The translations under genes and the position numbers were made by a program. This document shows, one piece after another, positions 1-31,993 of a DNA stretch of 64,000 bases. The stretch spans positions 111,762 to 175,761 of the forward strand of contig NZCT01000024.1 of assembly GCA_002688355.1 (NCBI GenBank), read 5' to 3'. The number at the start of each line of letters is the position of its first letter. Position 1 is the stretch's first letter. The notes below the pieces were generated by a model. That model did not search any database. It had not been told where the DNA came from and saw only the letters and a program-made list of their open reading frames with translations. Source of the stretch: an archaeon (GTDB lineage: Archaea > Nanobdellota > Nanobdellia > SCGC-AAA011-G17 > GW2011-AR20).

Positions 1-1656
1 TAAACCATGTAAACTTAATATTCTAACTTTCTCTGCTATCGCATCATCATTTGTTAATAATGCTCCACCTTCTCCAGTTGTTATATTTTTAATTGTATAA
101 AAACTAAAACAAGTTATATCTGCTATTGTTCCAACATTTCTTCCTTTATACTGTGCACCAATTGAATGAGCTGAATCAGAAATAACCTTTAGATTATGTT
201 TCTTGGCTATCTCCATAATCTCATCCATCTGACAAGGTTGTCCTGATAAATCAACAGGAATAATAGCTTTTGTTTTCTCTGTTATTTTTTCTTCTATTTT
301 AGTAACATCAATATTTAAAGTCTCTCTATTTATATCTACAAAAACTGGTTTAGCACCAACATGTATTATCATACTAGCTGTTGAAGGCCAAGTTATTGGC
401 GTAGTAATTACCTCATCTCCTTGTTTAATATCCAATGCTGCTAAAGCTAAATGTAAAGCACCTGTACAAGAATTTAAAGCTACAACATTTTTAATGCCTG
501 TATATCTTCTTATTTTTTCTTCAAATAATTTAGTTTTAGGGCCAGTAGTAATCCACCCAGATCTTAATGTATCTATAACTTCCTTTTCTTCATTCTCAGA
601 TATTGTAGGTAAAGCAAAAGGTAAGAAATCTGATCTTATTGTTTTTCCCGTTACATTTGCAGGAGTATCTAGTAAATTTTTAATTGTTTTAATACTATAA
701 TATTTTGTATCTTCTGTATCTTTAATTGTATTATCTAAAATTTTCTCCTTTATCTCGCGAGAGCCAGCCTCTATTGAATAATCTGCAGTATAGCCTAAAA
801 CATTAGTTATCTTATCAAAATTAACATTATAATCTCTAGAATCTTGATCTGCTGGAACCATTTCCACTACAGAATTTTCCACTACAGAATTAATTGCTTT
901 AGCAATATCTTTAACCTGTAAATTTAAATCATTGTTACCAACATTAAATATTTCTCCTTTGACTTTCTCTTGATTTGCTTCTAATACTGTTATGAAAGCT
1001 TTTGAAATATCTTTTGTATGAACATTAGGCCTCCATTGATCCCCACCTAGCACAAATATCTTACCCTCTTTTATTGCATTCTTAGTCATCACATTAACTA
1101 CCAAATCAAATCTCATCTTAGGAGAATAACCAAATGCAGTCCCATTTCTCAATATCGTAGGATGAAAATTTTCATCGTACATTTCTAATAGTATATCCTC
1201 ACCTTCTAGTTTTGTCTTAGCATAAAGAGAAACAGGTTGTTTAGGTGAATTCTCATCTAATTGTTTTGAAATGCCAGCTCCATAAACACTACAAGATGAA
1301 GAAAATATGAATTCTTTTACATCTTTCTCTTTACAAAACTTAGCAAGTTTTTCTGTACCATCAACATTTATCTTTGTTGTATAATACGGATCTAAATCAC
1401 AAGAAGGATCATTAGACAAACCAGCTAAATGCATAACAGAGTCTATTTCATCTAATAAATTTGGATATCTTTCTATATTTTGTAAATCTCCTTTTACTAA
1501 TTCAAAATTAGGATTGTCTTTTAATTCTTCTAAAGATTCATCTCCAAAATATAAAGAATCAAAAACTCTTACTTTATGTCCTTTATCTAAAAGATCTCTA
1601 ACTAAAACAGAACCAATATACCCTGCTCCACCTGTAACAAGTACTCTTTTTGACAT
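1..1656 (-). CDS. Partial (C-terminus beyond window edge) bifunctional protein: N-terminal extended-SDR sugar epimerase/dehydratase fused in frame to a DegT/DnrJ/EryC1/StrS PLP aminotransferase domain
   Basis: Manual translation of the minus strand from ATG at 1654-1656 gives MSKRVLVTGGAGYIGS (Rossmann motif) and YAKTK (YxxxK), then continues without a stop into LPFALPTISENEEKEVIDTLRSGWITTGPK...FSFYTIKNITTGEGGALLTNDD, which are DegT-family motifs, down to position 1. The ORF track lists no separate complete minus-strand ORF here, consistent with one open frame running off the window. Confidence 0.6.
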   Translation of the reverse strand, partial: MSKRVLVTGGAGYIGSVLVRDLLDKGHKVRVFDSLYFGDESLEELKDNPNFELVKGDLQNIERYPNLLDEIDSVMHLAGLSNDPSCDLDPYYTTKINVDGTEKLAKFCKEKDVKEFIFSSSCSVYGAGISKQLDENSPKQPVSLYAKTKLEGEDILLEMYDENFHPTILRNGTAFGYSPKMRFDLVVNVMTKNAIKEGKIFVLGGDQWRPNVHTKDISKAFITVLEANQEKVKGEIFNVGNNDLNLQVKDIAKAINSVVENSVVEMVPADQDSRDYNVNFDKITNVLGYTADYSIEAGSREIKEKILDNTIKDTEDTKYYSIKTIKNLLDTPANVTGKTIRSDFLPFALPTISENEEKEVIDTLRSGWITTGPKTKLFEEKIRRYTGIKNVVALNSCTGALHLALAALDIKQGDEVITTPITWPSTASMIIHVGAKPVFVDINRETLNIDVTKIEEKITEKTKAIIPVDLSGQPCQMDEIMEIAKKHNLKVISDSAHSIGAQYKGRNVGTIADITCFSFYTIKNITTGEGGALLTNDDAIAEKVRILSLHGL

Positions 1657-1708: not shown

Positions 1709-2389
1709 TCATTCAAGAAGAGAAAAAATATCATTTAAATCTCTTATTTTATCACAATCTTTTTCTGCATAAATGTCATCTTTATCAAACAAAATTGGTT
1801 TAATTCCTAAGTTTCCAGAGCTAATTATATCTTGTTCATAATCATTACCAACATATACTGTTTTTTCAGCATCCATATCATTTTTAGAAAGAACTGTCCT
1901 AAAAAATTCAGGATCTGGTTTCTCTAGTCCAACATCTGCAGAAGCTACAATAAAATCAAAATAATGAGTAATATCCAAATTTTTACAAAGTTCATGTAAA
2001 ACACTTTCCCAATTAGATAAAATACCTAATCTAAATCCTTTTTCTTTTAATTTTTCTAAAACAGAAATAACTTCTGGAAATAATACCCAATGAGCTTTTT
2101 TAAATTCACTATTTATTTCGATAGCTAATTGTTCAATATTATTCTTAATGCCTAACATGATTAAAATCTTCTTATTTTTTCCTATTAAAAATTCCTTCTT
2201 CTCTTCTTCGTTTTTTAAAGTCAATACAGATGTTTTCATATCAATGTAAAACAAAAACGCTTTCTTCATTTCTTCTTTTTTTATTTTAATATTGTGTCTT
2301 TTAAGAACATTAAGAAATACATCCTCTTTAGAAGGGTCTAACTGAACTAAAGTATCTCCAAAATCAAATAATATATTTTCATATTTCAT
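1709..2389 (-). CDS. HAD-superfamily hydrolase
   Basis: N-terminal LFDFGDTLV (DxDxT HAD motif I) and overall HAD-like layout with a C-terminal GNDYEQD motif IV-like segment. Confidence 0.6.
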   Translation of the reverse strand: MKYENILFDFGDTLVQLDPSKEDVFLNVLKRHNIKIKKEEMKKAFLFYIDMKTSVLTLKNEEEKKEFLIGKNKKILIMLGIKNNIEQLAIEINSEFKKAHWVLFPEVISVLEKLKEKGFRLGILSNWESVLHELCKNLDITHYFDFIVASADVGLEKPDPEFFRTVLSKNDMDAEKTVYVGNDYEQDIISSGNLGIKPILFDKDDIYAEKDCDKIRDLNDIFSLLE

Positions 2390-2391: not shown

Positions 2392-3432
2392 CTAAAAATT
2401 ATTATCAACTTCCGATTCTGCATCTTCAATAAATTTATCTTTCTCTAATGATTCTTGATAATCTTTAAAAACATAAACTTCATTCCAGTATCTTAATATT
2501 GTGCCTTTTTTATATTTCATCTCTCCAACATCTTCATTAAAAATAATTTTTCTAATCATTGCCTCAGGAGCGTTAAAACCAAGTTTAGCCCTCATGGGAG
2601 TTGTTCCAGAAACTCTTGGATTTATCTCAAAAACAGTTGGGCCTTTCTTTGTTAATCTCAGTTGAAAATTACAAGGTCCATTAGATCCAATTGCAAGAGC
2701 AGCTTTTTTAACCACTTCATTAATCTCTTCATAATCATCAACTATTGCACTAACTGTAGTACCTTCTAACAACTCACGTTTCATAGTTATACTTCCTAAC
2801 ATTTTCCCATTCAAAACAAGAGCTTCCGAAGTATATTCCTCATCATCAGGTTCTAAATATTCTTGGACAATAGGACTATCCACTATTTTCAATAAAGAAT
2901 ATAACTCATCTTTATCTTTAACTTTATGTACTCCTACTGATCCTCTTCCAACTCTAGGTTTTATTATTAAAGGAAATCCAAGCTTGTCAATCAATTGCTT
3001 AATACCATCTTCATCAGAAGCTAAAACAGTTTCAGGATAATTTAGATTATTTTCTTTAAGAAATTTATAAGTCTCAAATTTATCATTACCTATTCTAATT
3101 ACTTCTTCAGTATTTATAACAACCTTAGCTTTAGTCTTATTTTCTATAATCTCTTTATTTTTAGAAAAAATTGGTAATTCAATTGGTGGAGAAACAAAAA
3201 TTATATCTATATTTTCAGAATTACATATCTCTATTATTTTATCTAGAAATCTATCATCATTTGCTTTTGGAACAATATAACCTTTGTCTATTGTAAAAAA
3301 ACCAGTTGAGTGAGATTTTATATCAGTACCTACAATCCTACACTTTAAATTAGACATCTTAAGGGATTTAATAACTCCTTGTCCAATATTTCCTCCAACA
3401 CCTGTAATTAAAACATTAACAATTTTATCCAT
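2392..3432 (-). CDS. ATP-grasp domain protein (carboxylate-amine ligase-like)
   Basis: Rossmann-like N-terminus (VLITGVGGNIGQG), central PLIIKPRVGRGSVGV, and QEYLEP...FEINPRVSGT, typical of ATP-grasp enzymes (PurT/CarB-like fold). Confidence 0.55.
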   Translation of the reverse strand: MDKIVNVLITGVGGNIGQGVIKSLKMSNLKCRIVGTDIKSHSTGFFTIDKGYIVPKANDDRFLDKIIEICNSENIDIIFVSPPIELPIFSKNKEIIENKTKAKVVINTEEVIRIGNDKFETYKFLKENNLNYPETVLASDEDGIKQLIDKLGFPLIIKPRVGRGSVGVHKVKDKDELYSLLKIVDSPIVQEYLEPDDEEYTSEALVLNGKMLGSITMKRELLEGTTVSAIVDDYEEINEVVKKAALAIGSNGPCNFQLRLTKKGPTVFEINPRVSGTTPMRAKLGFNAPEAMIRKIIFNEDVGEMKYKKGTILRYWNEVYVFKDYQESLEKDKFIEDAESEVDNNF

Positions 3433-4288
3433 TTTTATAATCCTCTAATCCTTTTTCTAAATTATAATTTACTTTATATCCTAATTCTTCTTTAGCTTTT
3501 TCGATGTTTAATAGCATACTCGGACTTAGATCTTTCTTATCCATATCCAAAGATACTTTTAAATTACTATCTGAAAATTTTTTAATTATTAAATTAGCTA
3601 ACTCTATCATTGACGTAGATTTTCCAGAACCGATATTATAAATTCCTGTTTTTCTAGAATTCAAAGCTAAAATATTTGTATTAACCACATCCTTAACATA
3701 GACAAAATCTTGAAATCTTTTGCCTTCTTGAAATAGTTTTAAACTCTCTCCGGCCCTAACAGTTTTTATAAAAAAAGGGAGAACAGTATTTTCATTCTGA
3801 CCTTTTCCATAAACTGAAGAATATCTTAAAGAAATACATCTTAAACCATATTTATTTTTAAATATTTCACAATATCTCTCTCCAATTAATTTAGAGACTC
3901 CATAATAACCATTAGGTTCAAGTAAATCATTTTCTTGAATAGGAAAATTAACAGAGCTACCATAAACAGAAGCAGAAGAACTATTTACTAATTTTACATC
4001 TCTCTTCCTACAAAACTCTAAAACATTTAATAATCCCTTACCATTTACATTCAAACATTTCTCAGCATTTTCTACAGTGTCATTTAAAGGAATAAAAGAT
4101 CCTAAATGAAATACTGTGCCTATATCTTTAGGTAACTTATCAAAATCATCTTTATTAGTTACATCTAATTTTATTAGCTCTTCATTGCCAATAGTTGAAG
4201 TTCCTAAAACATCTAGCCCTTTATTTTTTAAACTAGCTAAAAGATATTTTCCAATAAATCCACTAGCTCCAATTACTAGAACTACCAT
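3425..4288 (-). CDS. NAD-dependent sugar epimerase/dehydratase (extended SDR)
   Basis: MVVLVIGASGFIGKYL glycine-rich NAD motif and YGVSK (YxxxK) catalytic motif. Confidence 0.7.
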   Translation of the reverse strand: MVVLVIGASGFIGKYLLASLKNKGLDVLGTSTIGNEELIKLDVTNKDDFDKLPKDIGTVFHLGSFIPLNDTVENAEKCLNVNGKGLLNVLEFCRKRDVKLVNSSSASVYGSSVNFPIQENDLLEPNGYYGVSKLIGERYCEIFKNKYGLRCISLRYSSVYGKGQNENTVLPFFIKTVRAGESLKLFQEGKRFQDFVYVKDVVNTNILALNSRKTGIYNIGSGKSTSMIELANLIIKKFSDSNLKVSLDMDKKDLSPSMLLNIEKAKEELGYKVNYNLEKGLEDYKNG

Positions 4289-6852: not shown

Positions 6853-8292
6853 TTATTCTGGTGCTCTTCCAGATCCACCTGATGCTAATGCTAAAGCACC
6901 TAAAACATATTTCTTAAAAATACCCCAATTATCGATATTCATCATCTTTCTTAAGATAATCTTTGGTCTAAAGTAAAAACTTTTTAACGCCTTTCTTTGC
7001 ATTTCTTTTAATTCCTCAGACTCTCTTCCTTTTGATACCCAAGGTAATTGATCATCAGAAAAACCACCCCATGTTTGATAATTATCCCAAGTAGCAGAAC
7101 TTGAAGTTAGCTCCCCATACTTACTAGCTTCTTGATATAATTGTGTTCCAGGATAAGGAACTGTAACTGTAAATTGAGCCCAATCAGGATCTAATTCTTT
7201 AGCAAATTTAATTGTTGCTTCATCATCTTCTCTCTTTCCTCCAGGCAAACCAATCATGAAATAACCACGAGTTTCTATGCCTGCTTTTCTAGCCCATTTA
7301 AACGCGTTTTTTATTTCATCCAAAGTTGCATCTTTTTGTATTGTATCTATTATTTTTTGTGAACCACCTTCAACACCAAAGTGAATTCCCCAACAACCTG
7401 CATTTTTCATTTTCTGTAATAATTCTAAATTTACCAAACCAGCTCTTGTAATACAATCCCATGTTACTTTCTTATGTAATCCTTCTTTTATTATTGCATC
7501 ACACAAATCTTTAGTTCTTTTTTTGTTTAAAGTAAAAGTATCATCTCTAATTAGAATTTCTTTAGCACCATATTTCTCAACTAATAATTTCATTTCTTCT
7601 ACTACGCGAGGAATAGAATGCATTCTATATCCAGTCTTAGCAGTAGCACAAAAAGTACATCTATATGGACATCCTCTTGTTGTTACCATTGTATACGCAG
7701 GTAATCTTTTATAATAAGAAACAGAAGGTCTATACAATTTCATATTAATTAGCTCTCTATTTGGAATTGGGAAGAAGTCTAAATCTTGTATTTTTTCAGC
7801 AGCTTCTGTCTGTATTAATTTCCCTTCTTCTTTGTAGACAATACCTTTTATGTCCTTTAATGAAGTTTTATTCTCAAAAGCATCTAATAATCCTTTGAAT
7901 GCCGCTTCTGCTTCTCCGATAGTTACAACATCAATTGATTTTTCTTTTGCTGTTTCTAACGGCCTCACAGATGCATGAGAGCCTCCAACAATAACTTTTA
8001 TATTTGGATTTATTTTCTTAGCTGTTTTACATACTTGTAATGATTGAGAAAACATAGATGTCAACATAGCAACACCCACCACATCATAATTTCCTTTTCT
8101 TATTCGTTTCTCTAATTGTTCATTAGAAACTCCTTGAGCTTCACAATCCAGTACTCTAACTTCATGATTATGTTTATTTAAGAAAGTAGCAATATAAAGT
8201 AAACTTAATGGTTCAGATTTGGGACCTACTTTTTTCCCTAATTTTTTCCAATACCCGTTATCTAAAGAGGGCATAACTAGTAAAGCTTTCAT
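6853..8292 (-). CDS. B12-binding domain / radical SAM protein (class B radical SAM)
   Basis: N-terminal cobalamin-binding-like domain (MKALLVMPSL...VVGVAMLTSMF...VIVGGSHAS) and radical SAM cluster motif TTRGCPYRCTFCAT (CxxxCxxC). Confidence 0.75.
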   Translation of the reverse strand: MKALLVMPSLDNGYWKKLGKKVGPKSEPLSLLYIATFLNKHNHEVRVLDCEAQGVSNEQLEKRIRKGNYDVVGVAMLTSMFSQSLQVCKTAKKINPNIKVIVGGSHASVRPLETAKEKSIDVVTIGEAEAAFKGLLDAFENKTSLKDIKGIVYKEEGKLIQTEAAEKIQDLDFFPIPNRELINMKLYRPSVSYYKRLPAYTMVTTRGCPYRCTFCATAKTGYRMHSIPRVVEEMKLLVEKYGAKEILIRDDTFTLNKKRTKDLCDAIIKEGLHKKVTWDCITRAGLVNLELLQKMKNAGCWGIHFGVEGGSQKIIDTIQKDATLDEIKNAFKWARKAGIETRGYFMIGLPGGKREDDEATIKFAKELDPDWAQFTVTVPYPGTQLYQEASKYGELTSSSATWDNYQTWGGFSDDQLPWVSKGRESEELKEMQRKALKSFYFRPKIILRKMMNIDNWGIFKKYVLGALALASGGSGRAPE

Positions 8293-8711: not shown

Positions 8712-10436
8712 TTATGATTTAATTTTATATAAATAAATTCCATTATTTGTTTCATATAAAATAGAATAATCTAATTCATGTTTACTTACAATATAATCTA
8801 TATTTTCAACATTTTCTACATCATCAATAACAATATTATCATTCATCCAAAAACCTATTATCGTAGAAGTCTGAAGTTCTGCATTACCACTGTAAATTGA
8901 TTCCTGTTGATTTTTATTTATAGGTCCATTATCTCTAACATCAAATAACACATTAGAAGTTTGATCTTTATCATATTCATTAAACCATTGACCTAATTTA
9001 GTTTGTTCACTATTAGTCCAATATATGTTATTATAAGAATAATTATATGCATAATTTGAAACACTTACAACTACAAAAAAGAAAACTAAGAAAACTAAAA
9101 CTTTCTTTAAATCAATATTCTTAATTAAATATTTAGCAAAGTAAATCAATCCTAAAAACACTGCTGTTAAAATTATCAAAGAAGGCCATGAAAAAAATCT
9201 CTCTACAATTAATTTTCCGTAAAAAAAATAATTAATAGCTAAATTTGAAAAACCGACCCAAGATAATGTTAAATTATTAGTCGGCAATAAAGCAATGAAT
9301 ATTATTTGAGAAGAAAATAATATGACTAAACTTGTAATAATTAAAGGATATTTTAAATTCTTCAAATAAAATTTATACAAAAAAATAACAATAAACGCAT
9401 TCAAAAATATCAAAGGTAAAACCATATCCGCATATCTTCCTATAATTTTACCAGAGAACCAAAAAAATAATGTCGGGAATATATTTAATCTTCCTGAATT
9501 ATGGTTAGCCATTATTACTAACGAAGATAAAATAGCAGAGAATGAAATTATTAAAAAGTAATTTATATTTGATTTCTTAAAAATGTTTTTAATTAACTTT
9601 AAGTTTAAAATAAAAGGGAAAAATCCTGTGCTAATAATTAAATAAGCAATATAGAAAATAAATAACGTTGCAAAAGATTCTAAACTATAAACTTTTGTAA
9701 ATGCAGTTGCCTCATAAACTTGAGGAGAAGCTAATACTCCATCTAATTTAAATCCAAAGTTTAAACCATTCCTAAAGATCCAAGGTAAACCAGCTAATGT
9801 TAATGTTAAAAAAACAACTGATCTTTTTTTAATTTCTAATTTTTTATTTAAAATTGCATAAATTAAAGCAGATAGTAAAAATGTTGGAATTAAAATTACT
9901 CCAATTAACCTTGTTAATATTGTTAACCCAATAAACAAACCTGCTAGAACATCAAACTTGTAATCTTTACTAATATAAGATTTATACAAAAAGTATATTG
10001 AAAATAAGAATAAAGTATAAAATAAATTTTCAGACATTATATACTGAGCAAAAGATAAATTTGTAGGAATTACAGAAACTAAAATTGCAAACAATAAAGA
10101 TTTTTTATCATTTAGAAATTCCTTTGCTAATAAAAAAGCTGGGAATATAATTAATGAAGACAATATTGAATTTATTACTTTAATAAAAAAGAAAACAACA
10201 GTCATATCTTTAAACAAATATGCTAATGAAATGAAAATTGGATACAAGGGAGGATTTTGATGTGAAGGTATTCCATGAATATCAAAAGTTCCAGAAGTAA
10301 TAAAACTCCTAGCCATTTCATTATAAACATAATAATCTGAATATGGTCCTGGAACGTCAATAAATGAAGATAAAAGTATTTTAACTATTACAAAAATAAT
10401 ATACAGTAAAATCAAGTATTTAGTTACTTTCTTCAT
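8712..10436 (-). CDS. Polytopic membrane protein, putative GT-C-fold glycosyltransferase (PMT/ArnT-like)
   Basis: At least 10 predicted hydrophobic helices over the first ~450 aa, then a ~120-aa soluble C-terminal domain. The architecture resembles dolichyl/undecaprenyl-phosphate-sugar-dependent GT-C transferases. No diagnostic catalytic motif was verified. Confidence 0.4.
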   Translation of the reverse strand: MKKVTKYLILLYIIFVIVKILLSSFIDVPGPYSDYYVYNEMARSFITSGTFDIHGIPSHQNPPLYPIFISLAYLFKDMTVVFFFIKVINSILSSLIIFPAFLLAKEFLNDKKSLLFAILVSVIPTNLSFAQYIMSENLFYTLFLFSIYFLYKSYISKDYKFDVLAGLFIGLTILTRLIGVILIPTFLLSALIYAILNKKLEIKKRSVVFLTLTLAGLPWIFRNGLNFGFKLDGVLASPQVYEATAFTKVYSLESFATLFIFYIAYLIISTGFFPFILNLKLIKNIFKKSNINYFLIISFSAILSSLVIMANHNSGRLNIFPTLFFWFSGKIIGRYADMVLPLIFLNAFIVIFLYKFYLKNLKYPLIITSLVILFSSQIIFIALLPTNNLTLSWVGFSNLAINYFFYGKLIVERFFSWPSLIILTAVFLGLIYFAKYLIKNIDLKKVLVFLVFFFVVVSVSNYAYNYSYNNIYWTNSEQTKLGQWFNEYDKDQTSNVLFDVRDNGPINKNQQESIYSGNAELQTSTIIGFWMNDNIVIDDVENVENIDYIVSKHELDYSILYETNNGIYLYKIKS

Positions 10437-10523: not shown

Positions 10524-11468
10524 ATGAAAAATCCAAAAGTCTTTGTAATGATTCCCTCATACAATGAGGAAAAATCTATTGGTAAAGTAATAAAAGAAAT
10601 AAAATTAGCTTCTAAAGATTATAAAATATTAGTAATAAATGATGGTAGTAGAGACAATACTGTTAAAGAAGCTAAAAAAGCAGGAGCACATTATATAATA
10701 GAAAATAAAAAAAATCTAGGTTTAGCTCCAAGTTTCAAAAAAGGCTTAGATGAATGTTTAAAATTAGGTGCAGATATTATTGTTAATACAGATGCTGATT
10801 TTCAATATAATCAAAAAGAAATTCCCAAAATAGTGAAACCAATAATAGATGAAAGAGCAGATGTTGTTCTAACTGATAGAAGAGTTTTACGGTTACGCCA
10901 TATGCCCTTCGGCAAAAAATATGGGAATACACTCTCTACGTTCGTAACAAGAATAGTTTCAGGCTATCCTGTAAGAGATGCACAAAGTGGTTTTAGGGGT
11001 TTTTCAAGGGAAGCTGCTCTAAGACTAAATGTTCTTTCGGATTATACCTATGTTCAAGAAACAATCATGCAAGCTGTTGATAAAAGATTAAAAATAATCC
11101 AAATACCTTGTGAATTTAGAAAAAGAGCTGGTAAAAGTAGACTGATAAGCAATGTATTTAATTACGCAAAAAGAGCTGGTTTAACTATTGTAAAAAATTA
11201 CGTGCATTACAAACCATTAAGAGCGTTATTAACTCTATCATCATTACCGTTAACTCTAGGGTTTCTATTAGGTCTAAGATTTTTATATTTCTTTTCTCAA
11301 GGAGATAATGGTCATGTGCAATCATTAATACTATCTGCTATATTATTAATCATAGGATTCCAAATTGTTGTTCTAGCATTTATTGCAAATTCAGTAGGAG
11401 CTAATAGAAAAATAATTGAAGAAATTCTATATTTAAAAAAGAAGAAAGAATTCTCAAAAAATGAATAA
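10524..11468 (+). CDS. Glycosyltransferase family 2, dolichol-phosphate-sugar synthase-like (DPM1/GtrB-like) with C-terminal membrane anchor
   Basis: VFVMIPSYNEEKSIGKVI...INDGSRDNT...VNTDADFQY (GT-A DXD region) and two C-terminal hydrophobic helices, as in GtrB/DPM1. Confidence 0.7.
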   Translation: MKNPKVFVMIPSYNEEKSIGKVIKEIKLASKDYKILVINDGSRDNTVKEAKKAGAHYIIENKKNLGLAPSFKKGLDECLKLGADIIVNTDADFQYNQKEIPKIVKPIIDERADVVLTDRRVLRLRHMPFGKKYGNTLSTFVTRIVSGYPVRDAQSGFRGFSREAALRLNVLSDYTYVQETIMQAVDKRLKIIQIPCEFRKRAGKSRLISNVFNYAKRAGLTIVKNYVHYKPLRALLTLSSLPLTLGFLLGLRFLYFFSQGDNGHVQSLILSAILLIIGFQIVVLAFIANSVGANRKIIEEILYLKKKKEFSKNE

Positions 11469-15542: not shown

Positions 15543-16730
15543 ATGTCATTTAAACTAAAAGAATTTGAAGGAAAAGAATTATTAAAAGAACATAACATTA
15601 AAATTCCAAATTCTACACTAGTAGAAGATTTAGAAGATTTAAAAAATACTTCAAAAGGTGTTGTAAAAATACAAACACTCTCAGGGAAAAGGGCAAAAAA
15701 TAAAGGAATTAAAATTTGCAATTCAAAAGAAGAAATAAAAAATTATTCTCAAAGTGTTTTAGGGAAGAAAATATTAAATGAAAAAATAAAGGAATTATTA
15801 ATTGAAGAAAAAATAGATTACGAAAAAGAATACTATTTTGCATTAATATTTAACACAATAGATAAATGTCCTCAATTATTAATAAGTAAAGAAGGGGGTT
15901 CAAATATAGAGGAAAATTCTCATACAACATTTAAAAAAAATATAAATCCTCTTCTCGGGATTCAAGATAATTTATTTAACGATTTAGAAAAATTAAACTT
16001 TGAAGATATTATAAAATTAAAAGAAACTATCTTAAACTTACACAAATGTTTTGAAAAAAATGACTTAAAATTATTAGAAATAAATCCTTTAGTTTATTCT
16101 AATGAAGAATATATTGCCTTAGATTGTGTAGCAATAATAGATTCTGAAGCATTGAAAAGACATAAATTCAATTTTCCAGAAAGAATAGGGTTCAGAAAAC
16201 CAACAGATTTAGAATTAAAAGCAAAGGAAATTGACAAAGATGATTATAGAGGTGTGGCTGGAAAAACGTTTCTAGAATTAGATGGAGATATTGCAATTCT
16301 AGCCTCAGGTGGTGGAGCTTCTGTTGTTTGTATGGACGCTTTACTAAAATATAATGGAAAACCAGCAAACTACACAGAATATTCTGGAAATCCATCTCAA
16401 GAAAAAGTAAAGAAACTAGCAACTTTAACACTTTCAAAAAAAGGATTAAACGGATTATGGATAGTTGGTGGAACAGCAAATTTTACAGATATTAAAGCAA
16501 CATTTCAAGGATTGATAGATGCATTCAAAGAAATAAATCCGCAATATCCAATTGTAATAAGAAGAGCAGGTCCAAATGACAAAGAAGCATTTCAATTAAT
16601 GGAAGAAGAATCTAAAAAAAATAATTGGAATGTACATTTGTTTAACGAAGAAACACCAATGACATTAACAGCAGAAACTATTGTTTCTCTTTCACAAGAA
16701 TACAAAAACAAAAATGGCAATACTAATTGA
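15543..16730 (+). CDS. Succinyl-CoA synthetase beta-subunit-like ATP-grasp protein (acyl-CoA or citryl-CoA synthetase large subunit-like)
   Basis: N-terminal KLKEFEGKELLKEHNIKIP (as SucC NLHEYQAK..GIPVP) and C-terminal ASGGGASVVCMDALLKYNGKPANYTEYSG (as SucC GGEPANFLDVGG). Confidence 0.65.
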   Translation: MSFKLKEFEGKELLKEHNIKIPNSTLVEDLEDLKNTSKGVVKIQTLSGKRAKNKGIKICNSKEEIKNYSQSVLGKKILNEKIKELLIEEKIDYEKEYYFALIFNTIDKCPQLLISKEGGSNIEENSHTTFKKNINPLLGIQDNLFNDLEKLNFEDIIKLKETILNLHKCFEKNDLKLLEINPLVYSNEEYIALDCVAIIDSEALKRHKFNFPERIGFRKPTDLELKAKEIDKDDYRGVAGKTFLELDGDIAILASGGGASVVCMDALLKYNGKPANYTEYSGNPSQEKVKKLATLTLSKKGLNGLWIVGGTANFTDIKATFQGLIDAFKEINPQYPIVIRRAGPNDKEAFQLMEEESKKNNWNVHLFNEETPMTLTAETIVSLSQEYKNKNGNTN

Positions 16731-17598
16731 TGAAAACACAAAAGTTCTAGTACAAGGAATAACTGGAAAAGAAGGTTCAAAATCAACCAAAGATATGTTA
16801 GACTATGGAACAAAAGTTTTATGTGGAGTCACTCCAGGGAAAGGTGGGCAAGAAGTTCATGGTATCCCAGTTTACAACACAATAAAAGAAGCACTAAAAG
16901 AACATGATGTAAATACTTCAATAATTTCCGTTCCCCCTTTAAGAGCTAAAGAAGCTGCATTTGAAGCTATTGAAAATAATATTCCATTAATAAATTTAAT
17001 ATCAGAACAAATACCAATTCATGACACTTCAAAGATTTTACAATATGCAAAAGAAAAAAATATTAGAATTGTAGGACCTTCATCTATTGGCATTATTTCT
17101 CCTGGAAAAGCTAAAATTGGTTATATTGGTGGATCTGAAAATAAATCATTCTTGCAAGGGAATGTAGGGATCATATCTAAATCTGGAGGGATGTGTTCTG
17201 AAACAGCACTAATATTAAAACAAAAAAACATTGGTCAAAGTACAGTTCTTGGAACTGGAGGAGATGAATTACTTGGAACTGATTTTGTAGATGCTTTAAA
17301 ATTGTTTAGAGATGATAAAGAAACTAAAGCAATCGTTTTATTTGGAGAAATTGGTGGCTCTTACGAAGAAGAAGCAGCAAAATATATAATAGAAACAAAA
17401 TATGAAAAACCAGTTATAGCGTTTATCTCAGGAAAATTTACTTCACAATTTCCTAACATAACATTTGGTCACGCTGGTGCAATAATAGAAGGTAACAAAG
17501 GAACAAGAGAAAACAAAATAAAAGAGCTTAAAAAAGCGGGGGTTCTAATAGCAGAAGTACATCATGAGATTGCTGATTTAGTTAAAGGAGTAATGTAA
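16714..17598 (+). CDS. Succinyl-CoA synthetase alpha-subunit-like CoA-binding protein
   Basis: MAILIDENTKVLVQGITGKEGS...KVLCGVTPGKGGQEVHGIPVYNT and phospho-His loop FGHAGAIIEGNKGT. The start is taken at ATG 16714 (MAILID) rather than the track start at 16681, giving a 17-nt overlap with the upstream gene. Confidence 0.7.
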   Translation: MAILIDENTKVLVQGITGKEGSKSTKDMLDYGTKVLCGVTPGKGGQEVHGIPVYNTIKEALKEHDVNTSIISVPPLRAKEAAFEAIENNIPLINLISEQIPIHDTSKILQYAKEKNIRIVGPSSIGIISPGKAKIGYIGGSENKSFLQGNVGIISKSGGMCSETALILKQKNIGQSTVLGTGGDELLGTDFVDALKLFRDDKETKAIVLFGEIGGSYEEEAAKYIIETKYEKPVIAFISGKFTSQFPNITFGHAGAIIEGNKGTRENKIKELKKAGVLIAEVHHEIADLVKGVM

Positions 17599-17599
17599 A

Positions 17600-18331
17600 A
17601 TGGAATGGAAAACAAAAATATCAAACTTTAATGGTAAAGATGAAACAGTGAAAGGTTTTGATTTAAATGATTTAATCGGAAAAGTTTCTTTTTCTGAAAT
17701 GATATTTATTTTACTAAAAGGAGAAAAACCTAAAGAAAATGAAATAAAATTAATGGATGCAATTTTAGTTGCTACAGCAGAACATGGAATAAATACTCCT
17801 TCAACATTAAGTGCAAGAGTATCAGCATCAGCAACACATAATCTAATCTCTTCCTTAACTGCAGGAATTTCTTCAATAGGCCAATATCATGGAGGTGCAA
17901 TAGAATCATTAGCACAAATACTACAAGAAAATAATTCAAAATCAGCAAAAGATATTGTACAAGAGTTCACAAGTAAAAATCAAAGACTTCCTGGCTTTGG
18001 TCATAAAATATACGAAACAGATCCAAGAGCAGTAAGATTATTTGCAGTAGCAAACGATCTAGGAATTAATAGCACTTACACAAAATTAACAAAAGAACTT
18101 GAACAAGAACTTGAACAAGTAAAAGGTAAAAAATTATGTATAAACATTGACGGTTGTTTAGCAGCATTAATATCTGAATTAAACTTCAATTGGAAAATTG
18201 CAAATATATTTTTTGTTTTACCAAGAATCTTAGGTCTAACAGCACATATTCAAGAAGAAATAGAAGAAGAGAAACCATATAGAAGACTAAACCAAGAGGA
18301 TATTAAGTATGAGAGTAATAGCAACAGTTGA
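17600..18331 (+). CDS. Short citrate-synthase-family protein (citryl-CoA lyase-like)
   Basis: ILVATAEHGINTPSTLSARVSASATHNLISSLTAGISSIGQYHGGAIE and GFGHKIYETDPRAVRL match the citrate synthase catalytic-domain motifs (GPLHGG and GFGHRVYK..DPR). The 243-aa size matches citryl-CoA lyase or the ACL C-terminal domain rather than a full citrate synthase. Confidence 0.6.
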   Translation: MEWKTKISNFNGKDETVKGFDLNDLIGKVSFSEMIFILLKGEKPKENEIKLMDAILVATAEHGINTPSTLSARVSASATHNLISSLTAGISSIGQYHGGAIESLAQILQENNSKSAKDIVQEFTSKNQRLPGFGHKIYETDPRAVRLFAVANDLGINSTYTKLTKELEQELEQVKGKKLCINIDGCLAALISELNFNWKIANIFFVLPRILGLTAHIQEEIEEEKPYRRLNQEDIKYESNSNS

Positions 18332-19043
18332 AGCAAGAATGGCAGCAACAAGACTTCCAGGAAAAGTCTTGGCAGATATAAAAGGTAAACCTGAATTACA
18401 AATATTTCTAGAAAGAGTAACTAAAGCAAAAAAAATTGATGATATAATCGTTGCAACAACAACAAATCCAAAAGATATAGAAATTGTTAATCTATGTAAA
18501 AAATTAAACGTTAAATATTTTAGAGGTTCTGAAGAAGATGTTCTCTCTCGAGTACTAGCAGCAGCTAAATCTTTAAATGCAGATATAATAGTTGAACTAT
18601 GTGCAGATGATCCTTTCATGGATCCAACAGTAATAGATGCAGCAATTGAACATTTCCTAAATAATGACTTTGACTATATGTCTAATTTTCATCCACTAAC
18701 TTTTCCACCAGGAATAGGTGTACAAATTTTTCCATTAAAAGTTTTAGATGAAATAGATAAGTTAACAAATAATCCGTATGATAGAGAAAATGTAACATGG
18801 TACATATATCACAATAAAGACAAATACAAATGCGGTAATTATCCAGCTCCAAAACATTTAGCAGATCCAAAAACAAAACTAGATTTAGATTATCCAGAAG
18901 ATCTTGAATTTATAAGAAAGGTATTTGATAATTTTGATGATATTCATTTCTCATTAAGAGATGTTTTAGATTTACTAGAAAAAAATCCAGAGTTAAAAGA
19001 GATTAATGCTAACAGATATGTTGGTGATGAAAGATACGAATAA
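18309..19043 (+). CDS. CMP-sugar synthetase / acylneuraminate cytidylyltransferase family (NeuA/PseF/LegF/SpsF-like)
   Basis: MRVIATVEARMAATRLPGKVLADIKGKP matches the N-terminal motif of CTP_transf_3 cytidylyltransferases. The start overlaps the upstream gene. Confidence 0.65.
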   Translation: MRVIATVEARMAATRLPGKVLADIKGKPELQIFLERVTKAKKIDDIIVATTTNPKDIEIVNLCKKLNVKYFRGSEEDVLSRVLAAAKSLNADIIVELCADDPFMDPTVIDAAIEHFLNNDFDYMSNFHPLTFPPGIGVQIFPLKVLDEIDKLTNNPYDRENVTWYIYHNKDKYKCGNYPAPKHLADPKTKLDLDYPEDLEFIRKVFDNFDDIHFSLRDVLDLLEKNPELKEINANRYVGDERYE

Positions 19044-19577
19044 TTATTTCTTTATTTTTCCATAATGAACTAAATCATAATATTTTCCATTCTTTAACAT
19101 TCCATCCTTAGATATTCCTTCCTTTTCCATACCACAATTTTCTGCTAATTTTTGCATACCAATATTTTCTATATTAGTTCCACAATATAATCGATGTAAG
19201 TTCATTTTACTAAACCCATAATCCATAATTAATTTCCAAGCTTCTTTTCCAACACCAGTTCCCCAATAATCTTTCTCCCCAATTATTATTGCAATCTCAG
19301 CATTGCTATCTTTTTTATTAATTTTCTGTAAAGAAATGTTTCCAATATGTCTATCATTATTCTTATCAATTATAGCAAATACCAAAGTATGTTCAGAATT
19401 TCTAACAGATTTAACATATTCTAATGTTTTCTCTTTTGTATTTACAACTTCACCATGTCCATTATATTTACAAACTTCCTTATCATTAAACCATTCTGGA
19501 TAATTTCCTTCAACATCAGATTCCTCAATCTGTCTAAGATAAATATTTTCTCCAATTAATTTAATATCTTCAGTCAT
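19044..19577 (-). CDS. GNAT-family N-acetyltransferase (RimL/Acetyltransf_3-like)
   Basis: HIGNISLQKIN...AEIAIIIGEKDYWGTGVGKEAWK, a GNAT acetyl-CoA-binding motif A-like region. Confidence 0.6.
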   Translation of the reverse strand: MTEDIKLIGENIYLRQIEESDVEGNYPEWFNDKEVCKYNGHGEVVNTKEKTLEYVKSVRNSEHTLVFAIIDKNNDRHIGNISLQKINKKDSNAEIAIIIGEKDYWGTGVGKEAWKLIMDYGFSKMNLHRLYCGTNIENIGMQKLAENCGMEKEGISKDGMLKNGKYYDLVHYGKIKK

Positions 19578-19628
19578 AAGATAATCACAATAGTGAAATT
19601 TATAACCTTTTCTAAGTAAATTTTAAAA

Positions 19629-20654
19629 ATGGAAAAAGAGTATAAAATTGGGATTATAGGACTTGGTAGAGTAGCTAATGAATTTGATAATGATCCAAAA
19701 AGAAAAGTAATCTGGAGTCATACAGGAGCTTATTCTAATAATCAAAAATGTAAACTAACTGCAATATGTGATTTAGATCAAGAAAAACTAAATAATTGCG
19801 CAGAAAAATATAATGTTCCTAAAACTTACACAGATTATAATGAAATGTTACAAAAAGAAGATTTAGATATTCTAAGCATTTGCACTTGGAACTCAACACA
19901 TTATCCAATTTTAAAAGCAGCAGTGGAAAATGGAGTAAAAGCAATATACTGTGAAAAACCAATAGCAAATAATCTAAAAGAAGCTGATGAAATGATAAAA
20001 CTATGCAAAGAAAATAATGTAAAACTAATGATTAACCATTGGAGACGTTTTGATGGTCTACATCCAAAAGTAAAAAAATACATTGATTCAGGTAATCTAG
20101 GAAATGTACAACAAGTTAACTTTTATTATACAGCAGGCATTGCTAACTCAGGATCGCATATGTTTGATCTACTAAGATATTTATTTGGAGATGTTTCCTG
20201 GATTGAAGCTCATTATAAAACTCAAGATGAAGATCCAAATATTGATGGACTCATAAAATTCAAGAATAATCTTCTCTGCACAATCCAATCCCTGGACGTA
20301 GATAGTTACACAAGATTTAACTTAATAATTTTTGGTACAAAAGGAAAAATAGAAATCACAAGAAATGGTTTTGACCTTGATATGTATGAAGCAAAACAAA
20401 GTGATAAATTTTCAGAATACAAAGAACTATACAAAATACCTTCAACAATAAATTTCAAAGAAGAAAGTCATATGGAACATGGAATTGCTCATTTAATAGA
20501 TTGTCTAGAAAATAATAAAACACCAATATCTAGTGGAAAAGATGGTCGTGAATCTTTATCATTAATCTGTGCTTTTCATGAATCTGCAAAAGAAGATGGT
20601 AAAAGAATACAAATACCTTTAAAAGAAAGCAACATAGAAATAAAATCGAAATAA
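19629..20654 (+). CDS. Gfo/Idh/MocA-family NAD(P)-dependent sugar oxidoreductase (WbpB-like)
   Basis: MEKEYKIGIIGLGRVANEF N-terminal Rossmann motif, ...CEKPIANNLKEADEM, and typical length. Confidence 0.7.
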   Translation: MEKEYKIGIIGLGRVANEFDNDPKRKVIWSHTGAYSNNQKCKLTAICDLDQEKLNNCAEKYNVPKTYTDYNEMLQKEDLDILSICTWNSTHYPILKAAVENGVKAIYCEKPIANNLKEADEMIKLCKENNVKLMINHWRRFDGLHPKVKKYIDSGNLGNVQQVNFYYTAGIANSGSHMFDLLRYLFGDVSWIEAHYKTQDEDPNIDGLIKFKNNLLCTIQSLDVDSYTRFNLIIFGTKGKIEITRNGFDLDMYEAKQSDKFSEYKELYKIPSTINFKEESHMEHGIAHLIDCLENNKTPISSGKDGRESLSLICAFHESAKEDGKRIQIPLKESNIEIKSK

Positions 20655-20655
20655 A

Positions 20656-21909
20656 ATGGCAAACCTAGCAATAAATGGAGGAGAAAAATTTAGAAAAGAA
20701 CCTTTTCCAAAACATCCAATAATTGGAGATGAAGAAAAAAAAGCAGCCCTAGACGTTCTAGAAAGAGGGGAATTATCAACATTTTTAGCTTCTCCAGGAC
20801 AATACTTTCTTGGTGGTAAAAAAATAAAAGAATTTGAAGATTATTGTAAAAATTATTTTAATGTAAAACACGCAATATTAATGAATTCTGCAACAGCTTG
20901 TTTACATGCTTCTCTTCCCGCTATCGGGGTAAAAGAAGGAGAAGAAGTCTTAGTTACTCCTTATTCTATGTCATGTAGTGCAACTTGTGCTTTAATGAAC
21001 AACACAGTTCCAATATTTGTTGACGTTAATGAAGAAAATTTCTCTATAGACCCAAAAAAAATAGAAGAGAAAATTACAGAAAAAACAAAAGCAATTATTG
21101 TTGTGCATTTATTTGGAGGTCCAGCAAACATGGATGAAATTATGGAAATTGCAAAAAAACACAACTTAAAAGTTATTGAAGACTGTGCTCAATCTCCTGG
21201 TGGAACATACAAAGATAAATTATTAGGAACAATTGGTGATTGCGGATTATTCTCATTTACAGAAACAAAAAACATTACAGCAGGTGAAGGTGGATTATTA
21301 ATAACAAATGATGATTCTATAGCAGATGTAGCTCAATTAATAAGAAATCATGGTGAAGCTGTTATAGTAGATCAGCCAAGAACTTATAGTTCCACAATTT
21401 TAGGCTACAATTATAGAATGACTGAGATAGATGCAGCAATTGGTTTAGAACAATTTAAAAAATTAGATTCTCTTAATAATCAAAGAATAAAATTAGCTGA
21501 GTATCTATCTGAAAAAATAAAACAAGAAGTTCCAGGAATTACTCCTTATTTAAATAATGAAAATGGTAAAAACGTTTATTTTATTTTACCTTTCAAATAT
21601 TCTGAATCTAAAGTAGGAATACCAAGAGATAAATTCATAGAAGCTTTAAACGCAGAAGGAATTCCATTTGGTTCAGGTTACGTAAAACCTCTTTACCTAA
21701 GTCCAATATTTCATGAAAACAAACATTTTGCATTAAAACATTTTGCTTCTCATATAAGTTACGACAAAGGTATTTGTCCAACTGTAGAAAAATTACATGA
21801 AAAAGAAATTATCTTAACATTAATAGCAAGACCTCCAGCAACTCTAAAAGATATGGATGATATTGTTGAAGCAATGAAAAAAATCATTGAAAATAAAGAA
21901 GAATTATAA
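20656..21909 (+). CDS. DegT/DnrJ/EryC1/StrS-family PLP-dependent sugar aminotransferase (WbpE-like)
   Basis: AINGGEKFRKEPFPKHPIIGDEEKKAALDVLERGELS...CAQSPGG...FSFTETKNITAGEGG (PLP-lysine region). Confidence 0.75.
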   Translation: MANLAINGGEKFRKEPFPKHPIIGDEEKKAALDVLERGELSTFLASPGQYFLGGKKIKEFEDYCKNYFNVKHAILMNSATACLHASLPAIGVKEGEEVLVTPYSMSCSATCALMNNTVPIFVDVNEENFSIDPKKIEEKITEKTKAIIVVHLFGGPANMDEIMEIAKKHNLKVIEDCAQSPGGTYKDKLLGTIGDCGLFSFTETKNITAGEGGLLITNDDSIADVAQLIRNHGEAVIVDQPRTYSSTILGYNYRMTEIDAAIGLEQFKKLDSLNNQRIKLAEYLSEKIKQEVPGITPYLNNENGKNVYFILPFKYSESKVGIPRDKFIEALNAEGIPFGSGYVKPLYLSPIFHENKHFALKHFASHISYDKGICPTVEKLHEKEIILTLIARPPATLKDMDDIVEAMKKIIENKEEL

Positions 21910-22699: not shown

Positions 22700-24217
22700 A
22701 TGGCTCTCGAAACTTTAACCACAACAAATGAACAAGATAGAATAGTTAAATCTAAAGTACCAATAACACCAACTCTAGAAAAATTACTTAACCCAAATCT
22801 TCACAAAAAAGAGCCTATTTTTACAAGTCCTTTAAAAAAACCAAAAGAAGGGGAAAAAGTTTACGATCTTTCACCAGAACAAATTAAAGCAATTCAAGAA
22901 CTAAGAGGAGCAGTAGTTGATCTACATCCAGGAATGGGTGGCGTTGTTCCCAGTAAACTAATACAAATGATTGAAGATGGAATTCCAGTTACTTCATTAG
23001 ATTTTATGATGACAAAAGGATGTAACTTTGAATGTACATGGTGTTATGCTGGTTCAAGTCCATTTGCTACAGAATTTCTTCCTTTTAATAAACTAGAATC
23101 TATAACTCAAGAAGCTGCAGATATTGGAGTCAGTTTATTTATTCTTACTGGTGGTGAGCCTCTTACATATAAAGATCCTGCTTTAGGAAAAGTAAACCAT
23201 AGAGGAGAACATTTTTTCAAAGTTGTTGAGATGATCAAAAATACATACGAACGACAAGGAAAAGAAGCTAAAATTTTAACATTTGATGATGTAGCTTTAA
23301 TCAATGAAAGGATTGCAGAACAATTTGCACATTACAAAATAGGATTATGTACAAAAGGCGACACGTTACATCCTGAATTACAAGATTATAAAGTAAACCA
23401 AGTCGGAGCCTTTAAAAAAATGGAAAAAGGTAATGAAAATTTAATAAAAGTGGGTTATGGGAAAAACCCTGATCTAAGAAATGTAGTTAATTCTGTTTTT
23501 GACCATACAACTTTTGATGGAATGCCAGATCTACATATGTTAGTCAAAGAAAGAGGATTTGATCATTCAATAGTTCCCATTCATTTTTGTGGAAATGCTG
23601 GGGATGAAGATCAAGAAGCAGGGATTCACTCACCCCACGTCAAAGTTCTATATGATCTTCTTTCTAAAGTTGATGAAAAATATTTTGATGAACACTGGGA
23701 ACCTTGGTCAGCATTTACATATAATAAAACCTGTAATAGAAATTTATCAGGCCTTCATATAAGAGCAAATGGTGATGTAACTTCATGTTCAGAATCTCCT
23801 GGAAGAGATGAAACAGACAGGTATACATTTGGCAATATATTTACAGATGAAAATTTCTCCTTAGAAGAATTAGCTTTTAGTAATCGTCTTGCAAACTATA
23901 GAACAGAATTCGCAGAAGGATCTGGAACATATGTATGTGCACCAGATATTTGTGATTTAAATGCTAACGATCTATGCCGAGGTGGATGTGCAGTAAGATC
24001 AGCATATTCAGGTATTAATTATGAAACAGGTTTAATTGAAGAAGGAACAGATGTTCACAATTACAGCACACATAGAGAAGATCCTTTATGCCCAGCATGG
24101 ACAAAACTTGCATTAACACAAGGCATTCTAAAAGAAGGTTTACTTTCAGCTATTCATGAAAGATTGCTTGAAAAAAGTGAAAAATTAGATATTAAAGATT
24201 TTCCTAATCCTTACTGA
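22700..24217 (+). CDS. Radical SAM protein with C-terminal SPASM/twitch-like Cys-rich domain
   Basis: MMTKGCNFECTWCYAG (CxxxCxxC), then GGEPL. The C-terminal region has seven Cys (TSCSESPG...VCAPDICDLNANDLCRGGCAVRS). Confidence 0.7.
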   Translation: MALETLTTTNEQDRIVKSKVPITPTLEKLLNPNLHKKEPIFTSPLKKPKEGEKVYDLSPEQIKAIQELRGAVVDLHPGMGGVVPSKLIQMIEDGIPVTSLDFMMTKGCNFECTWCYAGSSPFATEFLPFNKLESITQEAADIGVSLFILTGGEPLTYKDPALGKVNHRGEHFFKVVEMIKNTYERQGKEAKILTFDDVALINERIAEQFAHYKIGLCTKGDTLHPELQDYKVNQVGAFKKMEKGNENLIKVGYGKNPDLRNVVNSVFDHTTFDGMPDLHMLVKERGFDHSIVPIHFCGNAGDEDQEAGIHSPHVKVLYDLLSKVDEKYFDEHWEPWSAFTYNKTCNRNLSGLHIRANGDVTSCSESPGRDETDRYTFGNIFTDENFSLEELAFSNRLANYRTEFAEGSGTYVCAPDICDLNANDLCRGGCAVRSAYSGINYETGLIEEGTDVHNYSTHREDPLCPAWTKLALTQGILKEGLLSAIHERLLEKSEKLDIKDFPNPY

Positions 24218-31979: not shown

Positions 31980-31993
31980 TTTATTCCTCCTTG

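Follow-up and report, generated by a model that had tools for sequence, protein, structure and literature searches.

A 64,000-nucleotide stretch of archaeal DNA (contig NZCT01000024.1 of assembly GCA_002688355.1, positions 111,762 to 175,761; hereafter the window) begins, on its minus strand, with a gene that joins a short-chain dehydrogenase/reductase (SDR) of the extended type to a DegT-type aminotransferase dependent on pyridoxal phosphate (PLP). The gene is continuous, its fused layout is conserved, and both halves retain their catalytic residues, Ser121, Tyr145 and Lys149 in the SDR half and the PLP lysine, Lys523, in the aminotransferase half. Its closest relatives and its gene context were also established. 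We infer all of its chemistry, and propose, with a probability of about 0.6, that the protein is a nucleoside diphosphate (NDP)-sugar C4 dehydrogenase/C4 aminotransferase whose product, an NDP-4-amino-4-deoxy sugar, is destined for surface glycans. A first-pass annotation of the window had recognized the fusion but had read its SDR half as a 4,6-dehydratase.

In the proposed mechanism the N-terminal half, which resembles the dehydrogenase Cj1427, would oxidize the C4 hydroxyl of a nucleotide-sugar to give a 4-keto sugar, with no 4,6-dehydration. The C-terminal, ArnB-like half, packed against the SDR, would then use the keto group and L-glutamate to form the NDP-4-amino-4-deoxy sugar and alpha-ketoglutarate. 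On the pattern of Cj1427 and WbpB, the latter may re-oxidize the NADH held by the SDR half and leave as L-2-hydroxyglutarate, in which case the pair would be redox-neutral. In most lineages the amine would next be N-acetylated by a WecD-like GNAT, or N-formylated, and the acylated sugar would pass to glycosyltransferases, either a GT4 or a GT2 that loads it onto polyprenyl phosphate for an ArnT-type GT-C, and so reach cell-surface glycans. In this genome, the fusion shares a putative operon with an ATP-grasp ligase, a HAD hydrolase, a second SDR and a GT4.

A continuous gene in a conserved family

Translated on the minus strand from position 1656 to position 1, the window gives 552 codons with zero stops, the frame being open from the ATG at 1654-1656 as far as the edge of the window. 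L170, the source contig (a Tara Oceans scaffold about 224 kb long), matches the window identically across an overlap of 11,734 bp and carries the remaining 172 codons and the stop (L170 11735-12253). The stop lies 519 nt past the window edge, and the complete open reading frame (ORF; L170 10079-12253) encodes 724 amino acids, with no frameshift or stop at the SDR/DegT junction; this is the check on the adjoining contig for which the first-pass annotation had asked. In this single frame Pfam places Epimerase (PF01370) at residues 5-240 (E 6e-46), with the GDP_Man_Dehyd model reaching residue 301, and DegT_DnrJ_EryC1 (PF01041) at residues 351-551 (E 4e-90). The motifs cited when the fusion was first noted were all found, namely TGGAGYIGS (residues 8-16), YAKTK (145-149), TISENEEKEV (351-360) and FYTIKNITTGEGG (519-531), and the in-frame fusion itself is confirmed.

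Upstream the frame stays open for 26 more codons, as far as an ATG (1732-1734) that overlaps the neighboring HAD gene at its 3' end. The public gene call P0269 (750 residues) starts there, and the Tara, ENA and Logan calls likewise have 750 residues. We favor the ATG at 1654-1656, as did the first-pass annotation, because in 97 of 118 homologs the Rossmann motif begins 5-8 residues after the N-terminus. The GenBank entry MAG47640.1 starts at the internal Met266, and its 459-residue product, named PseC, leaves out the whole SDR half. Public annotation of the gene is thus wrong or inconsistent; homology supports a protein of 724 residues. This disagreement (459 vs 750 residues) might be taken as a sign that two genes were mis-joined or that a frameshift is hidden at the junction. 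It concerns the choice of start codon only, however, and the ORF is continuous on the source contig, the connector between the halves is conserved and confidently modeled, and the same junction recurs in 119 independent homologs. Because the homologs with both domains come from many independent assemblies, we regard an assembly artefact as practically out of the question.

The 120 best matches from a set of 5.8 billion public proteins include 119 that contain both domains. These have 641-755 residues, come from many independent assemblies, and cover 87-100% of the query (99-100% in all but one). The sources of the best matches are labeled Woesearchaeota, Pacearchaeota, Omnitrophota, Planctomycetota and Patescibacteria. 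A genome scan combined with ORF analysis also found, among the matches listed, single-ORF fusions in Thermodesulfobacteriota, Myxococcales, Hydrogenedentota, Nitrospiraceae, FCPU426 and Planctomycetia; the scan patterns came solely from the aminotransferase half, and the matches listed were mostly stand-alone aminotransferases. Several tblastn matches spanning residues 1-724 were rejected, as ORF analysis resolved them into adjacent separate genes. The family is cohesive, with about 50% identity or more across phyla, and for this reason a library clustered at 50% identity reduces it to about nine representatives that span the junction, from which its size cannot be read.

The architecture is already catalogued. 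Some members bear the NCBI name 'bifunctional SDR family oxidoreductase/aminotransferase class I/II-fold PLP-dependent enzyme', and the 724-residue protein, in which an extended SDR precedes a DegT domain, has the same layout; the JGI name is 'dTDP-4-amino-4,6-dideoxygalactose transaminase/nucleoside-diphosphate-sugar epimerase'. Full-length identity to named members such as P0100 is 49-77%. No solved structure spanning both halves was present among the PDB sequence and fold matches, and no published study of an SDR-DegT fusion was found in the literature searched. A survey of ArnA-type fusions reported no other stable fusion of the dehydrogenase or formyltransferase domain to another partner (PMC12650200). 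Other DegT fusions in public data (Polysacc_synt_2-DegT of the PseB/PglF type, as in P0144, formyltransferase-DegT, DegT-GNAT, DegT-cytidylyltransferase and Bac_transf-DegT) are families distinct from the present one. The fusion is an uncharacterized variant of known oxidase/transaminase pairs, common in poorly studied lineages. One protein of 908 residues (P0123) has about 390 extra N-terminal residues, with no Pfam match, before the same SDR-DegT layout, and may be a three-part fusion.

As first noted, the two activities usually reside in separate proteins, and natural split versions of the fusion exist. In L014 and L134 the SDR and aminotransferase genes are only 3-4 nt apart, which argues for functional coupling. 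The connector contains a helix (residues 321-330) in the AlphaFold2 (AF2) model, where 10-residue block means over residues 301-350 have pLDDT values of 86-94. Split versions have this helix at the SDR's C-terminus, and the split SDR of L014 retains the KYY segment. For a complete homolog (P0001, 77% identical), the AF2 model (pLDDT 92.3, pTM 0.83) is compact and without a disordered linker. This model makes the hand-over of a keto-sugar between the halves, suggested earlier as channeling, plausible.

Closest relatives, partner genes and possible cofactor recycling

The SDR half is closest to Cj1427. In a phmmer search of the PDB the best match was 6VO6, taken as Cj1427 from the fold-search description (E 5e-43; runner-up 1e-27), and BLASTP gave 34% identity over about 300 residues (E 3e-49). 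Modeled with AF2, the SDR half encoded by the window itself (pLDDT 94.9) had 6VO6/6VO8 as its top Foldseek match (E 1e-30, TMt 0.91-0.94), with C4 epimerases next, about four orders of magnitude behind in E-value. All fused SDR halves and the SDRs of the split versions score 108-160 bits against Cj1427, as opposed to 78 bits or less for all remaining SDRs of the window and of 85 loci. The motif FG-x-SP-x-MR-x-DL-x-x-N and many family-invariant residues are common to Cj1427 and the fusion. The half has the features of a Cj1427-like enzyme, that is, an extended SDR fold, a GxxGxxG motif and a Ser/Thr-Tyr-Lys triad. TGGxGYxG, Asp33, Cys122 and Tyr145 are invariant in 64 of 64 aligned fusions; Ser121 and Lys149 are invariant in a 39-sequence alignment and at least 90% conserved in the 64 sequences.

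The assignment of the second half as a DegT-type PLP aminotransferase stands. Asp494 and His497, of a D-x-A-H motif, and Lys523 are invariant, and the half belongs to the DegT/DnrJ/EryC1 family of fold-type I. Its best PDB match by sequence is ArnB (8sng, E 5e-86), to which Foldseek aligns it with a TMt of 0.96, a root-mean-square deviation of 1.6 Å and 39-41% identity. ArnB, the aminotransferase that uses uridine diphosphate (UDP)-4-amino-4-deoxy-L-arabinose and oxoglutarate (PDB 1MDO, 4OCA, 8SNG), is unlike the fusion in being stand-alone; its PLP lysine and the surrounding motif are conserved in the fusion. The ArnB equivalog NF008658 is the best-scoring model, at 373 bits for P0001, and its cutoff of 631 is not reached, so that by the NCBI criterion the half is not an ArnB orthologue.

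Contigs were examined with precomputed Pfam labels and with iterated hidden Markov models (HMMs) over 169 loci; in the search for GT-C enzymes the iterated HMMs replaced single-seed phmmer, which was too insensitive. We compared the genes within 6 kb of 22 non-redundant fused loci with those at 110 loci that have a stand-alone ArnB-like aminotransferase. A GNAT was found at 14/22 fused and 8/110 stand-alone loci (p 2e-8), and a GT-C (PMT/PMT_2 or YfhO) at 9/22 and 5/110, respectively (p 2e-5), whereas GT2 genes were not enriched (8/22 vs 27/110). The fusion-associated GNAT best matches WecD/RffC, a nucleotide-sugar 4-amino N-acetyltransferase, and often lies directly upstream of the fusion, with overlapping or nearly abutting ends. 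In the Woesearchaeota locus L087 a formyltransferase that matches the N-terminal domain of ArnA takes the place of the GNAT. At L003 the GT2 best matches ArnC (198 bits), and a UDP-sugar 6-dehydrogenase gene lies near the fusion. No other keto-sugar-forming enzyme was found within 8 kb in the fusion clusters L001, L004 and L005.

Partners resembling the ArnA formyltransferase, ArnC and ArnT thus co-localize with the fusions, and the series of putative steps is that of the Arn pathway: oxidation at C4, transamination, N-acylation, loading on polyprenyl phosphate by a GT2 and transfer outside by a PMT_2-type GT-C. The systems differ in that the fusion pairs a dehydrogenase with an aminotransferase, whereas ArnA pairs a formyltransferase with a dehydrogenase; in that the dehydrogenase of the fusion is of another SDR clade, without the decarboxylase signature; and in that the acyl group would usually be acetyl, from the GNAT, with no ArnD-like deformylase found.

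In the genome studied here the same-strand order is SDR, ATP-grasp, HAD, fusion and then, off-window, a GT4 gene that overlaps the stop of the fusion by 4 nt, followed by a Wzx-like flippase gene and a Glc-1-P cytidylyltransferase-like gene. The first SDR of this string is merely 27% identical to the SDR half of the fusion. No formyltransferase accompanies the fusion in the window, and the ATP-grasp ligase is a candidate N-acylating enzyme that would replace the usual GNAT. PMT_2 and GT2 genes of the fusion-associated families lie 7-10 kb from the fusion, and the GT4 and Wzx-like genes flank it. The GT2 matches Dol-P-Man synthase (E 2.8e-14) and ArnC (E 2.7e-11) in the PDB and AglJ in NCBIfam (111 bits), and scores 283 bits on the HMM of fusion-associated GT2 proteins. 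Off-window downstream (L170 19720-22166), a LAGLIDADG_2 homing-endonuclease-like ORF lies just upstream of, and slightly overlaps, a second PMT_2 gene.

Cj1427 oxidizes C4 without dehydration, and its tightly bound NADH is re-oxidized by alpha-ketoglutarate, which yields L-2-hydroxyglutarate (PMC10680097, PMC7949155). Similarly, the bound NADH of WbpB, working with WbpE, is re-oxidized by 2-ketoglutarate to give 2-hydroxyglutarate (PMC8651671). WbpB and WbpE of Pseudomonas aeruginosa, a UDP-GlcNAcA 3-dehydrogenase and a 3-aminotransferase, are therefore a precedent for an oxidase/transaminase pair with NADH recycling. Neither system is the same as the fusion. WbpB, a member of the GFO/IDH/MocA family, acts at C3, yields D-2-hydroxyglutarate and is unfused; Cj1427 is stand-alone and feeds epimerases and reductases, not an aminotransferase, and its substrate, GDP-heptose, should not be assumed for the fusion. 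Nevertheless, because the aminotransferase makes alpha-ketoglutarate and the closest relative of the SDR half consumes it, a redox-neutral cycle is possible, with the net reaction NDP-sugar + Glu -> NDP-4-amino-4-deoxy sugar + L-2-hydroxyglutarate.

Genes of the DAO family match the L-2-hydroxyglutarate oxidase (LhgO) equivalog NF008726 (cutoff 299 bits) at L010 (535 bits), L164 (310), L142 (301) and L139 (300), and under the cutoff at L131 (295) and L088 (254). They sit in sugar-modification operons beside a Cj1427-clade SDR and an ArnB-like aminotransferase, fused or unfused. The order at L010, on one strand, is LhgO, GT2, GNAT, fusion; at L142 it is unfused SDR (of the same clade, 259 bits), LhgO, aminotransferase, formyltransferase. 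An LhgO gene is present at 6 of the 32 loci with a Cj1427-clade SDR and at 1 of the 132 without (p 2e-4), the latter being a contig cut off at the oxidase gene. No significant enrichment was seen when fused loci were compared with those classed as stand-alone (2/22 vs 4/110, p 0.26); the reason is that an unfused SDR of this clade is present at several of the loci so classed. We found no paper in the literature searched that connects LhgO with sugar operons. By analogy with these systems we tentatively suggest, at rather less than even odds, that the fusion carries out a redox-neutral amination in which the 4-keto sugar and alpha-ketoglutarate shuttle between two fixed active sites. It would thereby supply an undescribed 4-acylamido-4-deoxy sugar for GT-C-mediated surface modification across DPANN, the candidate phyla radiation (CPR), Omnitrophota, Planctomycetota and others. 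In some lineages the operon-encoded L-2-hydroxyglutarate oxidase would close the loop.

Competing explanations

In the first-pass annotation the SDR half was a 4,6-dehydratase similar to PseB, PglF or RmlB, and its NDP-4-keto-6-deoxy sugar would be converted to a 4-amino-4,6-dideoxy sugar. The proposed step at a 4-keto nucleotide-sugar by a DegT aminotransferase is indeed common to PseB/PseC and PglF/PglE, and the generic Pfam matches to Epimerase and GDP_Man_Dehyd, the weak matches to the models for dTDP-glucose 4,6-dehydratase (TIGR01181, RmlB; 107-112 bits) and LegB (102-108 bits), the score of the aminotransferase half on the PseC equivalog (TIGR03588, 364 bits) and the GenBank name of the truncated product are all in line with such an enzyme. 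Yet these scores lie below the respective cutoffs of 365, 475 and 423.5 bits, and the PseB model (TIGR03589) gives 50-52 bits against a cutoff of 407.75. The PseB and PglF dehydratases, which yield 6-deoxy sugars, belong to Polysacc_synt_2 (PF02719), a model that matches the SDR half over residues 5-121 only, with 49 bits; the genuine Polysacc_synt_2-DegT fusion is a separate family. Thus, the half is of neither the PseB/PglF nor the RmlB/GMD type, and the analogy drawn with PseB/PseC, PglF/PglE and WbpB/WbpE is not supported. After strand 5, RmlB-type dehydratases have Thr-Asp-Glu, and the dehydratase-like SDR encoded at 43415-44389 of the window has Thr-Ser-Glu; Cj1427 has Thr-Asn-Ser and the fusion Ser-Cys-Ser. 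Because no acidic residue follows the catalytic Ser, the acid/base pair for 5,6-elimination is absent. Together with the non-dehydrating nature of Cj1427, this makes a dehydratase quite improbable. A UDP-4-amino-4,6-dideoxy sugar, the product first predicted, is unlikely given a non-dehydratase SDR half, and the sequence comparisons make a 4-amino-4-deoxy sugar that keeps O6, or a pentose, the more likely product.

A pentose would be expected if the two halves acted as the ArnA dehydrogenase and ArnB do, with C4 oxidation and decarboxylation of UDP-glucuronic acid and formation of UDP-4-amino-4-deoxy-L-arabinose or a similar aminopentose. The closeness of the aminotransferase half to ArnB, the Arn-like partners and the UDP-sugar 6-dehydrogenase gene at L003 point in this direction, and a 4-keto-uronic acid, as a beta-keto acid, decarboxylates readily. 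We consider this unlikely, however, since the SDR half does poorly on the ArnA model (NF005998; 45-53 bits, over the Rossmann part only) and on the UXS model (NF008872; 53-64 bits, cutoff 294), and is not a decarboxylase of the ArnA/UXS type; in ArnA and UXS Ser-Glu follows the catalytic Thr, and the SDR half has no such pair after its catalytic residue. Moreover, the ArnB cutoff is not reached, a UDP-sugar 6-dehydrogenase gene is absent from most clusters examined, and no ArnD-like deformylase was seen beside the fusions. It could also be that the halves do not catalyze consecutive steps, the SDR being a C4 epimerase or reductase for another step of the pathway, the keto substrate coming from elsewhere and the fusion ensuring only co-expression. 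DegT domains fuse to many different partners (GNAT, formyltransferase, cytidylyltransferase, Bac_transf), so that fusion alone is no proof of consecutive steps; C4 epimerases are the next structural neighbors after Cj1427, and among the SDR models of NCBIfam GalE scores best (143-149 bits). The GalE score is nonetheless below its cutoff of 262, several clusters have no other candidate keto-sugar-forming enzyme, the split genes are directly adjacent, and the association with LhgO fits a dehydrogenase that consumes alpha-ketoglutarate, not an epimerase. We give this arrangement a low probability.

Several observations weigh against the proposed C4 dehydrogenase/C4 aminotransferase and its possible cofactor recycling. 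The identity to Cj1427 is only 34%, and the invariant Cys122 (codon 1291-1293, minus strand), which is also present in the split SDR of L014, is replaced by Asn in Cj1427 and could point to other or further chemistry. As to the nucleotide, the hints conflict: the Arn-like partners point to UDP, the cytidylyltransferase-like gene 2.6 kb downstream to CDP and Cj1427 to GDP. HMM searches found no WecD-like GNAT in the window or 10 kb beyond; nor was LhgO found over the same range, and 26 of the 32 loci with a Cj1427-clade SDR lack a neighboring LhgO gene. Phylogenetic independence does not hold for the loci compared (L139 and L146 being near-duplicates), and the HMMs used for the partners were ad hoc ones. 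Finally, the full-length AF2 model is that of the 77%-identical homolog as a monomer.

Neighboring genes and biological meaning

Features of the fusion gene, its neighbors and related loci. Positions are those of the window unless a locus is named.
Feature	Position	Strand	Basis
Fusion gene, first 552 of 724 codons	1..1656	-	Open frame; identical to source contig over the overlap
Extended-SDR half, residues 1-303, Cj1427-like	748..1656	-	PF01370; TGGAGYIGS at residues 8-16, Asp33
Ser121-Cys122-Ser123 codons (catalytic Ser and invariant Cys)	1288..1296	-	Family alignments, motif comparison
Tyr145-Ala-Lys-Thr-Lys149 codons (YxxxK pair)	1210..1224	-	Family alignments
Inter-domain connector, residues 304-345, conserved YY-I-K-T helix	622..747	-	AF2 and comparison with split versions
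ArnB-like DegT aminotransferase half, residues 346-552 of 346-724	1..621	-	PF01041, E 4e-90
Lys523 codon, PLP Schiff-base lysine (SFY-x-x-K-N)	88..90	-	Invariant in all aligned fusions
HAD-family hydrolase, directly upstream of fusion	1709..2389	-	Pfam HAD_2, E 5e-28
ATP-grasp ligase (NF009402 'carbamoyl phosphate synthase-like')	2392..3432	-	NCBIfam 352.9 bits, cutoff 218
Second extended SDR, 287 residues, first gene of the same-strand string	3425..4288	-	PF01370, E 7e-49
PMT_2 (ArnT-type GT-C) glycosyltransferase	8712..10436	-	Pfam PMT_2; 386 bits on HMM from fusion-adjacent PMT proteins
GT2 polyprenyl-phosphate glycosyltransferase-like (AglJ / Dol-P-hexose synthase / ArnC-like)	10524..11468	+	PDB and HMM matches
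Phosphoenolpyruvate (PEP) mutase fused to cytidylyltransferase-like domain	30660-31979		
Nucleotidyltransferase	33349-34128		
Fe-alcohol dehydrogenase	34172-35317		
Thiamine pyrophosphate-dependent decarboxylase-like protein	35314-36378		
LhgO-bearing sugar-modification loci	L010 6582-12175; L142 6700-12186; L139 9779-15255; L088 4057-5187; L131; L164		

The window encodes further sugar-modifying systems in addition to the fusion. At 19044-21909 an unfused GNAT (minus strand), a GFO/IDH/MocA oxidoreductase (115 bits on an archaeal UDP-GlcNAc 3-dehydrogenase model) and a DegT aminotransferase resemble WbpD/WbpB/WbpE and are a separate oxidase/transaminase system, the second in the window. Components of a nonulosonic-acid-type pathway, all unfused, lie at 40241-41254, 42305-43384, 43415-44389 and 26359-27405; among them are a PseB/FnlA-like Polysacc_synt_2 dehydratase (253 bits, the PseB-like gene at 40241-41254), a UDP-GlcNAc 2-epimerase, NeuB and, at 43415-44389, the LegB/RmlB-like dehydratase with the Thr-Ser-Glu motif. 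A phosphonate-type gene set at 30660-36378 suggests phosphonate decoration of glycans or lipids, and a close relative (L086) has the same PEP mutase beside its fusion cluster. Four radical S-adenosylmethionine (SAM) genes are scattered in the glycan island (6853-8292, 24211-26340, 29404-30663 and 22700-24217), three of them with B12-binding domains; a B12-radical-SAM gene is also found near the fusion in the Patescibacteria contig L005.

Inside the glycan cluster, at 15543-18331, lies an ATP-citrate-lyase-like trio (ATP-grasp_2 + Citrate_bind; CoA_binding + Ligase_CoA; citrate synthase C-terminal domain), an unusual location for such genes, and it adjoins a CMP-sugar-type cytidylyltransferase gene at 18309-19043. 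A single ORF at 47604-48638 (344 residues) combines HAD phosphatase and GNAT acetyltransferase domains. The ORFs at 60203-63871 (1222 residues), 27438-28421 (327 residues) and 45282-46172 (296 residues) had no Pfam match at E <= 1e-5.

If the fusion is a C4 dehydrogenase/C4 aminotransferase, it would be a compact route to a C4 amino group on a nucleotide-sugar, without a prior 6-deoxy step. Should recycling also take place, glutamate would serve as the nitrogen donor and, via alpha-ketoglutarate, as the oxidant. This would extend the ping-pong mechanism of Cj1427 beyond Campylobacter capsule synthesis and would explain the presence of L-2-hydroxyglutarate oxidase genes inside polysaccharide operons. 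The family is frequent in lineages that are the least studied and mostly uncultured (DPANN, CPR, Omnitrophota). Next to nothing is known of their surface glycans, and the activity proposed here would provide a specific, testable sugar modification in these organisms.

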